DNA from: Escherichia coli
GTDB taxonomy: Bacteria; Pseudomonadota; Gammaproteobacteria; Enterobacterales; Enterobacteriaceae
Reading direction: 5' to 3' (one strand)
Length of the DNA: 64,000 nt
NCBI RefSeq assembly: GCF_050320075.1
Contig: NZ_CP190018.1
In this document: one piece after another, positions 10,917 through 16,256 of the stretch
Layout of the letters: each line of letters opens with the position of its first letter
Position numbering within the stretch: position 1 is the first letter of the stretch
The notes under the pieces: model-generated
Database searches by the model: none
What the model was told of the DNA's origin: nothing
The model's input: the letters and a program-made list of their open reading frames with translations, nothing else
Program-made: the position numbers and the translations under genes

Positions 10917-12500
10917 ATGAATTTAACCCTCAAAGAATCGCTTGTTACCCGTAGCCGGGTATTTAGCCCGTGGACTGCGTTCTACTTTTTACAGTCGCTA
11001 TTAATTAACCTCGGCTTAGGTTATCCCTTCAGTTTGCTCTACACCGCTGCGTTTACGGCTATGTTGCTTTTGCTATGGCGAACATTGCCTCGCGTACAAA
11101 AAGTTCTGGTCGGTGTCAGTTCGCTGGTGGCGGCTTGTTATTTCCCTTTTGCTCAGGCCTACGGCGCGCCTAATTTCAATACATTGCTGGCATTGCACTC
11201 CACCAATATGGAAGAGTCGACCGAAATCCTGACGATTTTTCCGTGGTACAGCTACCTGGTCGGCTTATTTATTTTTGCGCTCGGCTTAATAGCAATCAGG
11301 CGAAAAAAAGAGAATGAAAAAGCGCGCTGGAATACCTTCGACAGCCTGTGTCTGGTATTCAGTGTGGCGACATTTTTTGTTGCTCCCATGCAAAACCTGG
11401 CCTGGGGCGGCGTATTTAAACTGAAAGATACCGGCTATCCGGTATTTCGTTTTGCTAAGGATGTCATCGTCAATAATAACGAGGTGATTGAAGAGCAAGA
11501 ACGGATGGCAAAACTTTCCGGAATGAAAGATACCTGGACGGTCACTGCCGTTAAGCCGAAATATCAGACCTATGTGGTGGTGATCGGTGAAAGCGCGCGT
11601 CGCGATGCCCTCGGTGCCTTTGGCGGTCACTGGGACAATACCCCGTTTGCCAGCAGTGTTAACGGTTTGATATTTGCTGACTACATTGCCGCCAGTGGCT
11701 CCACGCAGAAATCGCTTGGCTTAACGCTCAATCGCGTAGTCGATGGCAAACCACAGTTTCAGGATAACTTTGTCACCCTGGCAAATCGCGCGGGCTTCCA
11801 GACCTGGTGGTTTTCCAACCAGGGCCAAATCGGCGAATACGATACCGCCATCGCCAGCATCGCCAAACGTGCAGATGAAGTGTACTTCCTGAAAGAAGGT
11901 AATTTTGAAGCAGATAAAAACACGAAAGACGAAGCGTTACTGGATATGACCGCTCAAGTGCTGGCACAAGAGCACTCGCAACCGCAGCTGATTGTTTTAC
12001 ATCTGATGGGCTCGCATCCGCAGGCCTGCGACAGGACACAAGGCAAATACGAAACCTTTGTGCAATCGAAAGAAACGTCGTGCTATCTCTATACCATGAC
12101 GCAAACAGACGATTTACTGCGTAAGCTGTACGATCAGTTACGCAACAGCGGCAGCAGCTTCTCGCTGGTTTACTTTTCTGACCACGGTCTGGCCTTTAAA
12201 GAGCGCGGCAAAGACGTGCAATACCTTGCCCATGATGATAAATATCAGCAAAATTTCCAGGTGCCTTTTATGGTCATTTCGAGCGACGATAAAGCGCATC
12301 GGGTGATTAAAGCCCGCCGCTCTGCCAATGACTTCTTAGGCTTTTTCTCCCAGTGGACGGGAATTAAAGCGAAGGAAATTAACATCAAATACCCGTTTAT
12401 ATCTGAGAAGAAAGCCGGGCCGATATACATCACCAACTTCCAGTTACAGAAGGTGGATTACAACCATCTCGGAACCGATATTTTCGACCCGAAACCTTAA
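10917..12500 (+). CDS. opgE: Phosphoethanolamine transferase OpgE (YbiP)
   Basis: 527-aa membrane N-domain plus sulfatase-like domain; synteny. Confidence 0.85.
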   Translation: MNLTLKESLVTRSRVFSPWTAFYFLQSLLINLGLGYPFSLLYTAAFTAMLLLLWRTLPRVQKVLVGVSSLVAACYFPFAQAYGAPNFNTLLALHSTNMEESTEILTIFPWYSYLVGLFIFALGLIAIRRKKENEKARWNTFDSLCLVFSVATFFVAPMQNLAWGGVFKLKDTGYPVFRFAKDVIVNNNEVIEEQERMAKLSGMKDTWTVTAVKPKYQTYVVVIGESARRDALGAFGGHWDNTPFASSVNGLIFADYIAASGSTQKSLGLTLNRVVDGKPQFQDNFVTLANRAGFQTWWFSNQGQIGEYDTAIASIAKRADEVYFLKEGNFEADKNTKDEALLDMTAQVLAQEHSQPQLIVLHLMGSHPQACDRTQGKYETFVQSKETSCYLYTMTQTDDLLRKLYDQLRNSGSSFSLVYFSDHGLAFKERGKDVQYLAHDDKYQQNFQVPFMVISSDDKAHRVIKARRSANDFLGFFSQWTGIKAKEINIKYPFISEKKAGPIYITNFQLQKVDYNHLGTDIFDPKP

Positions 12501-12505
12501 AAACA

Positions 12506-12534
12506 AAAATCCGCCCCGAGAGGCGGATTTTTTA
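12506..12534. terminator. Bidirectional rho-independent terminator between opgE and ompX
   Basis: atccgcc-ccgaga-ggcggat hairpin flanked by A-run and T-run. Confidence 0.75.
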
Positions 12535-12548
12535 TATCACCGAAGTGA

Positions 12549-13064
12549 TTAGAAGCGGTAACCAACACCGGCAATCCAGGTGCCTACGTCAACGCTACGA
12601 ATACGGCTCTGCTCGTAAGAGAAGTCCAGAGCAACGTTTTCCATCGGGTTGAACTGCAGACCAGCACCGTAGGAGAAACCGTAGTCGCTGGTGTCGTGTT
12701 TGTAGGTCGGGTATTCAGTGGTCTGGAATTTACCATAACCCACACCCACTACACCGTAGATGCTTGCCCAGTCGTTAATGCGGTAAGCCGGACCAGCAGT
12801 GATGCCGTAGTACTGGTTTTTGTTGTAGTCACCAGAGCTTGCAGTACGGCTTTTCTCGGTGTAAGTGAAAGAACCGATCACACCCAGCGGGCTGTTGTCT
12901 TCTTCATAGCGGTATTTCAGGTTGAAACCGCCCATTTTGTTCATTTGGCCCTGAGCGTCGCTCTGTGCGTAACCGCCAGTTACGGTAGAAGTTGCAGCTA
13001 CGGAAGTACCTGCGGTGAAAGCCAGAACTGCGGCCAGTGCTGAAAGACATGCAATTTTTTTCAT
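12549..13064 (-). CDS. ompX: Outer membrane protein OmpX
   Basis: Translation MKKIACLSALAAVLAFTAGTSVAATSTVTGGYAQSDAQG...; Ail/Lom family beta-barrel; ATG at 13064. Confidence 0.95.
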   Translation of the reverse strand: MKKIACLSALAAVLAFTAGTSVAATSTVTGGYAQSDAQGQMNKMGGFNLKYRYEEDNSPLGVIGSFTYTEKSRTASSGDYNKNQYYGITAGPAYRINDWASIYGVVGVGYGKFQTTEYPTYKHDTSDYGFSYGAGLQFNPMENVALDFSYEQSRIRSVDVGTWIAGVGYRF

Positions 13065-13416
13065 AACCACCTCAAATGTGATTCAAATAAGTCCTAAGTT
13101 TTAAATATATCAAAAATTAATGGGAAACTCTTCGCGATTTGTGATGTCTAACGGGCCATTTCATGTAACAGAACGTTTCCATACACCGCTATCCATCTAA
13201 ATTTAAATCACTTTTTCAGAGAACTGCGTAAGTATTACGCATGTTTTCCCTGTCATTCATCCAGATTATTCCTAATCACCAGACTAATGATTCCATCAAT
13301 CCTGGCGCATTTTAGTCAAAACGGGGGAAAATTTTTTCAACAAATGCTCAACCAGCATTGGGTATATCCAGTACACTCCACGCTTTACTTAAGTCTAGAT
13401 ATTTGTGGGAGAAAGG

Positions 13417-14304
13417 ATGCCTGGTTCATTACGTAAAATGCCGGTCTGGTTACCAATAGTCATATTGCTCGTTGCCATGGCGTCTATTCAGGGTGGAGCC
13501 TCGTTAGCTAAGTCACTTTTTCCTCTGGTGGGCGCACCGGGTGTCACTGCGCTGCGTCTGGCATTAGGAACGCTGATCCTCATCGCGTTCTTTAAGCCAT
13601 GGCGACTGCGCTTTGCCAAAGAGCAACGGTTACCGCTGTTGTTTTACGGCGTTTCGCTGGGGGGGATGAATTATCTTTTTTATCTTTCTATTCAGACGGT
13701 ACCGCTGGGTATTGCGGTGGCGCTGGAGTTCACCGGACCACTGGCGGTGGCGCTGTTCTCTTCTCGTCGCCCGGTAGATTTCGTCTGGGTTGTGCTGGCG
13801 GTTCTTGGTCTGTGGTTCCTGCTACCGCTGGGGCAAGACGTTTCCCATGTCGATTTAATCGGCTGTGCGCTGGCACTGGGGGCCGGGGCTTGTTGGGCTA
13901 TTTACATTTTAAGTGGGCAACGCGCAGGAGCGGAACATGGCCCTGCGACGGTGGCTATTGGTTCGTTGATTGCAGCGTTAATTTTCGTGCCAATTGGAGC
14001 GCTTCAGGCTGGTGAAGCACTCTGGCACTGGTCGGTTATTCCATTGGGTCTGGCGGTCGCTATTCTCTCGACCGCTCTGCCTTATTCGCTGGAAATGATT
14101 GCCCTCACCCGTTTGCCAACACGGACATTTGGTACGCTGATGAGCATGGAACCGGCGCTGGCTGCCGTTTCCGGGATGATTTTCCTCGGAGAAACACTGA
14201 CACCCATACAGCTGCTGGCGCTCGGCGCTATCATCGCCGCTTCAATGGGGTCTACGCTGACAGTACGCAAAGAGAGCAAAATAAAAGAATTAGACATTAA
14301 TTAA
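13417..14304 (+). CDS. rhtA: Threonine/homoserine exporter RhtA (DMT family)
   Basis: 295 aa from ATG 13417 (MPGSLRKMPVWLPIVILL); 10-TM EamA-type. Confidence 0.9.
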   Translation: MPGSLRKMPVWLPIVILLVAMASIQGGASLAKSLFPLVGAPGVTALRLALGTLILIAFFKPWRLRFAKEQRLPLLFYGVSLGGMNYLFYLSIQTVPLGIAVALEFTGPLAVALFSSRRPVDFVWVVLAVLGLWFLLPLGQDVSHVDLIGCALALGAGACWAIYILSGQRAGAEHGPATVAIGSLIAALIFVPIGALQAGEALWHWSVIPLGLAVAILSTALPYSLEMIALTRLPTRTFGTLMSMEPALAAVSGMIFLGETLTPIQLLALGAIIAASMGSTLTVRKESKIKELDIN

Positions 14305-14316
14305 ATTTACATTTCT

Positions 14317-14344
14317 GCATGGTTATGCATAACCATGCAGAATT
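14317..14344. repeat. 28-bp perfect palindrome tctgcatggttatgcataaccatgcaga
   Basis: Verified by reverse-complementing; lies 13 bp after rhtA stop. Confidence 0.9.
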
Positions 14345-14458
14345 TCTCGCTACTTTTCCTCTACACCGTCTTTATATATCGAATTATGCAAAAGCATATT
14401 TATTCCGAAAATTCCTGGCGAGCCAATAAATAAGAATTGTTCTTATCAATATAACTAA

Positions 14459-15106
<648 letters not shown>

Positions 15107-15147
15107 ATCCATCGTTGATGGTGCAGAACTTTAGTACACGATAAAAG

Positions 15148-15178
15148 CGGCTTCCTGACAGGAGGCCGTTTTGTTTTG
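15148..15178 (+). terminator. dps rho-independent terminator
   Basis: cggcttcc-tgaca-ggaggccg hairpin followed by ttttgtttt. Confidence 0.7.
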
Positions 15179-15336
15179 TAGCCCGCCTCAACGCACTTAT
15201 TTAGTGCATCCATCTGCTATCCCCAGCTGGTTAAGTAAATTTTTTGTATCCACATCATCACACAATCGTTACATAAAGATTGTTTTTTCATCAGGTTTTA
15301 CGCTAAATAATCACTGTGTTGAGTGCACAATTTTAG

Positions 15337-15353
15337 CGCACCAGTTTGGTGCC
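15337..15353. promoter_or_regulatory. NtrC-type binding site upstream of glnH
   Basis: gcaccagtttggtgc palindrome matching the TGCACC-N-GGTGCA pattern. Confidence 0.55.
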
Positions 15354-15439
15354 CCAGAATGGTGCATCTTCAGGGTATTGCCCTATAAATCGTGCATCAC
15401 GTTTTTGCCGCATCTCGAAAAATCAATGAGTTGCAAAAC

Positions 15440-15456
15440 TGGCACGATTTTTTCAT
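15440..15456 (+). promoter_or_regulatory. sigma54-type promoter (glnHp2-like)
   Basis: tggcacgattttttcat: GG and downstream element at -24/-12 spacing, about 55 bp upstream of glnH ATG. Confidence 0.6.
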
Positions 15457-15494
15457 ATATGTGAATGTCACGCAGGGGATCGTCCCGTGGATAG

Positions 15495-16256
<762 letters not shown>

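Follow-up and report, generated by a model that had tools for sequence, protein, structure and literature searches.

Location and distribution of the palindrome

The window, by which we mean the whole stretch of DNA analysed, comprises 64 kb of E. coli DNA from contig NZ_CP190018.1 (assembly GCF_050320075.1). The local gene order is opgE, ompX (− strand), rhtA, dps and glnH. The rhtA coding sequence, which specifies a threonine/homoserine exporter, runs from 13417 to 14304 on the + strand according to the ORF list, and is so annotated by RefSeq both in E. coli records that match the window exactly or nearly so and in K-12 (b0813, 888 bp). Its co-directional downstream neighbour dps occupies positions 14603–15106 on the same strand, as assigned from the ORF list, annotation and synteny. 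Between the two genes we noted a single occurrence in the window of TCTGCATGGTTATGCATAACCATGCAGA, at positions 14314–14341. A perfect 28 bp palindrome with no loop had been described downstream of rhtA in the initial annotation of this DNA; the palindrome is present as described, but it had been placed at 14317–14344, a shift of +3. One further complementary pair on each side of the 28 bp core gives a perfect 30 bp palindrome (14313–14342) with arms TTCTGCATGGTTATG and CATAACCATGCAGAA. On the rhtA-sense strand the palindrome begins 8 nt past the rhtA stop codon TAA (14302–14304), and about 260 nt separate it from the dps ATG (14603). The AATTT reported on both flanks is there in a loose sense only: the right-hand AATTT (14341–14345) overlaps the end of the palindrome and the left-hand AATTT (14304–14308) lies 5 nt off.

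No other perfect inverted repeat in the 64 kb is as long: the palindrome has arms of 15 nt, the next longest repeat arms of 11 nt. The longest arm in 100 dinucleotide shuffles averaged 8.1 nt with a maximum of no more than 12 nt, and the chance expectation for the palindrome pattern was 0.00 in 100 shuffles.

The palindrome of K-12 MG1655 (849172–849201) is identical to that of the window, and the K-12 annotation contains no feature between dps and rhtA. A 421 bp stretch around the site shows 100% identity to strain 118UI and was found in 5421 of 5426 complete E. coli genomes. A 50 bp query around the site gave a match in 5420 of the 5426 genomes, with one site in each (the two hits per genome represent the two strands). 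This 50 bp stretch is identical in 4079 genomes and carries one or two differences in 1341 (about 25%). Five genomes of the 98%-identity class were sampled, and every one has the substitution A14342T (GCAGATTTTCTCG), by which the outermost pair is lost and the U run grows to UUUU. In strain SCPM-O-B-8794 the substitution T14343A produces a 34 bp perfect palindrome, and isolate ecoli019 has a 2 bp deletion in the tail. The 28 bp core was invariant among the E. coli genomes sampled.

The window strain differs from K-12 at six positions in the rhtA–dps spacer, which lie in its AT-rich middle (14424–14470) and at 14559, past the presumed −10 hexamer of dps; none falls in the hairpin. We also note a small dyad (ATGC-AAAA-GCAT), TTATGCAAAAGCAT at 14384–14397, in which the TTATGCA found at the centre of the palindrome recurs. 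This element is 86% complementary to 14319–14332; it occurs in Escherichia and was not seen in Citrobacter.

RNA fold and downstream tail

Read as rhtA-sense RNA, positions 14313–14342 fold into a 13 bp stem closed by a UGCA tetraloop, with an energy of −18.7 kcal/mol and z = −6.35. The tetraloop (14326–14329, + strand), with A14325–U14330 as its closing pair, is found in both the RNA and the DNA folds. The DNA palindrome appears loop-less because the UGCA loop is self-complementary. The stem is AT-rich, with G–C pairs at five of its 13 positions. A scan of positions 13000–15600 against Rfam (Rfam 15) with E-values up to 10 gave no match at 14300–14360.

The tail after the stem reads AAUUUCUCGCUACUUUUCC. 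The U-tract directly past the stem is short (UUUCUCG), the tract UUUCUCGC containing 4 U in 8. A consensus terminator scan, the rule of which asks for at least five T in the eight bases after the stem, called the dps terminator (15144–15172) and did not call the rhtA hairpin, because only four of the eight bases past its stem are T. The same scan found no promoter-like site in the region, missing even the known dps promoter, and is uninformative on promoters. The window allele has a T-tail score of 2.99, compared with 4.45 for the dps terminator and 5.51 for thrL. An approximate d'Aubenton-Carafa discriminant, in which ViennaRNA energies replaced the original parameters, put the window allele at −4.5, the A14342T allele at +6.8 and the dps terminator at +8.2. 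An A-tract upstream of the hairpin is absent. The 40 nt following the stem (14343–14382) contain 12 C and 3 G, which is weak evidence of a rut-like enrichment since the whole rhtA–dps spacer is G-poor.

Published 3′ end of the rhtA transcript

In the LB RNAtag-seq sheet of the TRS paper (Nat Commun 2023; PMC10687069), a terminus classed as 'Primary' is given for rhtA at 849163–849170 on the K-12 minus strand. The peak is dominated by position 849165; the signal is 0.911 and the adjusted p values are 0, 0.185 and 0.0028 (significant in two of the three libraries). The fold reported by those authors is the rhtA hairpin at −18.7 kcal/mol, and the 3′ UTR is tabulated as 46 nt. Positions were converted as window position = 14304 + (849210 − K-12 position), which was verified against the sequence strings of the table. 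The TRS peak corresponds to window positions 14344–14351 and the dominant position 849165 to 14349, which is 7 nt past the last paired base, A14342; the rhtA RNA end reads ...GCAGAAUUUCUCG. The weak U-tract UUUCUCGCU (14343–14351, + strand) thus contains the published terminus, as given in supplementary data 3 and 4 of PMC10687069. The terminus comes from one RNAtag-seq data set of steady-state ends, and a steady-state end cannot separate termination from processing. Transcript 3′ ends immediately after the hairpin had been proposed in the initial annotation as a check on its operator idea, and the TRS end, located 7 nt past the stem, counts against that idea.

The Term-seq lists of Adams et al. 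2021 contain no minus-strand 3′ end between K-12 848852 and 850273. In the TRS data (PMC10687069) expression of rhtA is weak, with some 0.05 read starts per position, and this may explain its absence from the lists of Adams et al. 2021. No rhtA entry was found in the TERMITe supplements or in those of bioRxiv 10.1101/2023.10.02.560326. Full-text literature searches that combined rhtA with dps, terminator or termination terms returned nothing on rhtA termination, and one for rhtA together with the dps intergenic region returned a single paper, which concerns the rhtA/ompX promoter spacer instead.

Conservation and covariation in the Enterobacteriaceae

We compared 80 RhtA-encoding loci, taking one genome per species, from Escherichia, Citrobacter, Salmonella, Enterobacter, Kosakonia, Buttiauxella, Leclercia, Atlantibacter, Pantoea and other genera. 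In 78 of these loci rhtA is followed by dps with a spacer of about 300 bp. A hairpin lies 1–15 nt past the rhtA stop codon in nearly all of the 80 loci, which provide about 60 distinct orthologues. It also follows rhtA in the two loci that have no downstream dps (L073 and L081). The arms CTGCATGG/CCATGCAG are retained in Escherichia, Citrobacter, Salmonella, Enterobacter and Lelliottia. Different sequences with intact pairing are found in Kosakonia (TATTCAGCATGAG/CTCATGCTGAATA), Buttiauxella (TATTTACCGTGGT/ACCACGGTAAATA), Leclercia (TTTGCCGGGAAG/CTTCCCGGCAAA) and Atlantibacter (TATTCCGCATC/GATGCGGAATA). Overall, CTGCATGG is exchanged in other genera for TACCGTGG, CAGCATGAG, TGCCGGGAAG or TCCGCATC, with complementarity kept. 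The unpaired middle ranges from 0 to 10 nt across the orthologues. The loops of Citrobacter, Salmonella and Enterobacter are 4–9 nt long and non-palindromic; Citrobacter, for example, has GGTT-TGCAT-AACC or GGTT-GCAT-AACC compared with GGTTATGCATAACC in E. coli. Among the loci compared, the spacer-free perfect palindrome is restricted to Escherichia. Conservation across the Enterobacteriaceae, raised as a check when the palindrome was first described, holds for the hairpin in nearly all of the 80 loci; the half-sites and the spacing that an operator would have are not kept.

Covariation was evaluated for the 15-pair helix on a MAFFT alignment of 57 distinct sequences that was built without structural information. 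Paired cells made up 86.6% of the total, compared with 70.0% in shuffles and 32–45% in slid controls. Compensatory cells numbered 157, compared with 53 in shuffles and 15–42 in slid controls. Changes on both sides were observed for 14 of the 15 pairs, and none of 500 shuffles matched the observed paired cells, compensatory cells or covariation score. RNAalifold independently predicts the same helix, with ten core pairs and compensatory changes in each.

Among 62 distinct orthologous hairpins the approximate discriminant exceeds zero in only one, with a median of −29.8, and the median tail score over the 62 loci is 1.69. As 61 of the 62 hairpins fail the discriminant, it is the hairpin and not a U-tract that selection has maintained across the family. 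Downstream of the hairpin, C minus G averages +0.04 to +0.15 over the first 160 nt, with C exceeding G in most 20 nt bins (62 loci).

We further note that the foot of the hairpin nearly always reads TATTY...RAATA followed by T or TT (loci L007–L078), even where the upper stem has changed. The distance between TATTY and RAATA is constant at 20–24 nt across the orthologous loci. The constancy of these motifs and of their spacing may reflect simple inheritance without insertions or deletions. The AAUAUU at the hairpin foot presumably fits the loose RNase E consensus.

RNA or DNA element and strand

A test based on mismatch type was needed because a palindromic operator would also retain its symmetry. 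We scored G·T and A·C equally in the stems of distinct orthologues and counted 831 Watson–Crick pairs, 34 G·T, 10 A·C and six other mismatches. The G·T and A·C counts are phylogenetically non-independent; a hand count reduces them to roughly 22 and nine separate events, respectively. Only when the + strand sequence is taken as RNA does G·T amount to a wobble pair. The G·T excess on the rhtA-sense strand is therefore supportive of an RNA reading, but is not decisive. The consensus fold of the reverse-complement alignment is weaker (−16.24 versus −17.3 kcal/mol; RNAalifold), and across the ten core pairs 44 cells are broken on the − strand versus 22 on the + strand. Comparison of whole-segment fold energies between the + and − strands gave p = 0.04, a value made noisy by flanking structure. 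Taken together, the variable spacing, the replaced arms and the strand bias argue for an RNA hairpin on the rhtA transcript and not for a rigid dimeric operator.

Proposed role of the hairpin

In our view, the 30 bp palindrome (14313–14342, + strand) is very probably the 3′ stem-loop of the rhtA mRNA, with 13 RNA base pairs. This assignment draws on the statistics of the repeat, its folding and the conservation, covariation and strand bias observed in 57–62 orthologues. The reading of the palindrome as an intrinsic terminator stem, offered in the initial annotation as one of two possibilities, is essentially right in that the hairpin is conserved with compensatory changes and the published rhtA 3′ terminus lies 7 nt beyond it. 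On transcription of rhtA from the + strand, 14313–14342 would fold into the 13 bp hairpin with its UGCA loop, and the steady-state RNA would end about 7 nt later. The hairpin would set the 3′ end of the rhtA mRNA and would guard it against 3′-to-5′ exonucleases. It may also help to keep rhtA transcription out of the tightly regulated dps promoter, which is about 220 bp downstream. Such insulation of dps from rhtA read-through is a plausible benefit because the co-directional adjacency of rhtA and dps is conserved.

The manner in which polymerase is released can be considered separately. Dar & Sorek 2018 (NAR; PMC6061677) reported that Rho-dependent transcripts end just past stable stem-loops that lack U-tracts or upstream A-tracts, with a mild enrichment of C over G downstream. 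In their account PNPase and RNase II are stopped by the stem-loops, and weakly expressed genes are more often Rho-dependent. The rhtA hairpin shares several properties with these protective stem-loops: it is a stable stem-loop directly upstream of a precise steady-state 3′ end, its U-tract is poor or absent, it has no upstream A-tract, C exceeds G downstream and the gene is weakly expressed. This picture is matched by 61 of the 62 orthologues. The rhtA hairpin differs in that the E. coli allele has three to four U directly after the stem, and any involvement of Rho and trimming at rhtA is deduced from these resemblances. The E. coli hairpin resembles the 'transition states' discussed by Dar & Sorek (PMC6061677). 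When set beside intrinsic terminators such as that of dps (15144–15172), it is alike in that the hairpin closes a gene, the stem runs straight into U residues and the 3′ end lies 7 nt past the stem. It is unlike the dps terminator in its much weaker U-tract (2.99 versus 4.45), which the scan did not call, and unlike intrinsic terminators generally in its AT-rich stem and in a U-tract that is not conserved among orthologues.

On this basis, release in E. coli would be a mixture of modest intrinsic termination at the hairpin and Rho-dependent termination in the C-rich, G-poor stretch downstream, with the Rho-terminated RNA then trimmed by exonuclease back to the hairpin. The candidate zone for Rho loading or termination is 14343–14382 (+ strand), which is proposed from its composition, the orthologue average and the pattern described by Dar & Sorek 2018. 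Because the U-tract is short (UUUCUCG), release in E. coli is probably shared between the intrinsic and Rho routes. Provided that the palindrome is an RNA 3′-end hairpin, we would give an even chance to the Rho and trimming route being the dominant one in E. coli; dominance of intrinsic termination would be the less probable outcome, if still a serious one. Most other Enterobacteriaceae lack the U-tract, and the Rho and trimming route should therefore dominate there. The E. coli hairpin is a borderline intrinsic terminator, while in nearly all other genera the element is a U-poor stem-loop.

One alternative is a self-sufficient canonical intrinsic terminator, in which the hairpin and U-tract alone release polymerase at about 14349 and neither Rho nor trimming has any real part. 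The hairpin is stable, and three U follow the stem directly, or four in the A14342T variant found in some 25% of E. coli genomes. The mapped 3′ end is at the classical distance of 7 nt past the stem, and by the discriminant the window allele (−4.5) falls close to threshold, while the variant is positive (+6.8) and similar to the dps terminator (+8.2). However, the hairpin went uncalled by the terminator scan, its tail score of 2.99 is below the 4.45–5.51 of canonical tails and there is no upstream A-tract. Downstream C exceeds G, as at Rho-dependent ends, and 61 of 62 orthologous hairpins fail the discriminant (median −29.8). We consider this alternative tenable but rather unlikely.

The feature itself is an ordinary one, and its essentials are already in print, namely the mapped rhtA 3′ terminus and the observation of a 30 bp inverted repeat. 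What is added here is that the element is an ancient, covarying and mostly U-less 3′ stem-loop, the E. coli form of which borders on an intrinsic terminator. The E. coli alleles AAUUUCUC and AUUUUCUC lie at the border of intrinsic termination and are a possible natural case of the drift between Rho-dependent and intrinsic ends proposed by Dar & Sorek. Beyond annotation the importance of the result is small. It does provide a clean example of a long perfect palindrome beside a well studied promoter that need not be an operator, a question which comparative data and one 3′-end map can settle.

Possible roles at the DNA level

The same 30 bp inverted repeat was noted by Melekhov 2015 (PMC4433220) and Antipov 2017 (PMC5553809), who proposed that it aids Dps binding. 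In the form put forward by Antipov et al. 2017 (PMC5553809), the repeat would be extruded as a cruciform in supercoiled DNA and serve as a primary contact for the Dps dodecamer, contributing to dps autoregulation. An affinity of Dps for branched DNA has been reported (PMC4433220), a hairpin can form on each single DNA strand at about −13 kcal/mol and the perfect spacer-free form is present in Escherichia. From the primer sequences in PMC4433220, the distal fragment F1–R1 spans about 14175–14388 and includes the whole palindrome, and primer F2 starts inside the right arm. The palindrome-bearing F1–R1 bound Dps less well than the promoter fragment F2–R2, and at a fivefold excess of Dps protection was limited to isolated bands some 113 and 175 bp from F1, which flank the palindrome (PMC4433220). 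Outside Escherichia, loops of 4–10 nt and G·U pairs disfavour extrusion and yet the element is conserved, and the strand bias of the mismatches points to RNA. In vivo evidence for a cruciform was not found in the literature. A cruciform role of this kind appears very improbable to us. The papers that describe a 'primary contact' for Dps (PMC4433220, PMC5553809) report weak non-specific protection and left a role as the rhtA 3′ hairpin unconsidered; we suggest that the repeat they discuss be re-read as first of all the rhtA terminator hairpin.

Since the other genera carry looped, wobble-containing hairpins, any role at the DNA level would have to be specific to Escherichia. One can imagine that a single-base insertion confined to Escherichia converted an old hairpin loop into the spacer-free palindrome and so added a DNA-level task to that of the rhtA 3′ hairpin, and we regard this as very doubtful. 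Were it true, a cruciform might be extruded some 235 bp ahead of the dps start site, where it could bind Dps or a different nucleoid protein that recognises DNA structure, and so contribute to dps autoregulation.

The second possibility offered in the initial annotation was the operator of a dimeric DNA-binding regulator, in which the 14–15 bp arms would be half-sites that control dps from far upstream or act on rhtA. The perfect dyad symmetry, the position in the rhtA–dps spacer upstream of dps and the invariance of the 28 bp core in the E. coli genomes sampled speak for such a site. Dyad symmetry is, however, the only property that the element shares with the palindromic operators of dimeric repressors; its half-sites and spacing are unconserved, its mismatches are strand-biased and no cognate protein is known. 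Natural operators are usually shorter and less exact than this perfect 30 bp. In other genera the half-site sequences are replaced with complementarity kept, the distance between the arms varies from 0 to 10 nt and the bias of G·T over A·C (34 versus 10) on one strand would be meaningless for duplex recognition. There is a single copy per genome with no similar second site, no regulator gene is adjacent and a transcript end maps directly after the palindrome. The centre of the palindrome is about 235 bp upstream of the dps start site, as estimated from the presumed −10 hexamer TATACT (14551–14556), and is beyond the Fis and Dps/IHF contact regions, which lie within about 120 bp of Pdps (PMC5553809). 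Full-text literature searches, which included the palindrome sequence and CecR with rhtA, found no binding report, the only published contacts being the weak non-specific ones of Dps. The operator reading is not supported by these data and we judge it to be highly improbable.

Finally, a dispersed extragenic palindrome of the REP/BIME type or a mobile-element remnant, which the REP-like length and the position after a gene might suggest, has a negligible probability and is ruled out by copy number: each of 5420 E. coli genomes, out of 5426, has a single site, and the element occurs only once in the window even with three mismatches allowed. The element also has no Rfam match or K-12 repeat annotation, and is orthologous and syntenic across genera.

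Other elements in the region

Several neighbouring elements were noted during the analysis. The convergent genes opgE (stop at 12500) and ompX (stop at 12549) are separated by the second-longest hairpin of the window (12505–12532; 11 nt arms and a 6 nt loop). This hairpin is a bidirectional terminator, flanked by TRS termini for opgE (K-12 850979, equivalent to 12535, + strand) and ompX (K-12 851013, equivalent to 12501, − strand). The rhtA–ompX spacer contains the hairpin TGCGTAAGTATTACGCA at 13221–13241 on the − strand. Two orphan 3′ ends listed by Adams et al. 2021 fall within the ompX leader, ahead of the small gene yliM, on the − strand of the window: K-12 850273(+) converts to 13241 and K-12 850293(+) to 13221. 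These ends in the ompX 5′ region look like the products of premature termination or processing.

Adams et al. 2021 also report two 3′ ends inside dps, at K-12 848852 and 848673 (window 14662 and 14841, + strand), with high reads in one condition. The published 3′ ends of dps itself, K-12 848334–848340, correspond to window positions 15174–15180. The dps terminator region (15097–15179) gave sub-threshold Rfam matches to ctRNA_p42d (24.5 versus 50 bits) and STnc70 (21 versus 40 bits), which most likely reflect a generic resemblance to terminators. A short dyad, ATAGC-CGGT-GCTAT, at 14540–14553 overlaps the presumed −10 hexamer of dps (TATACT, 14551–14556). This dyad may resemble the reported MntR site of the dps promoter.
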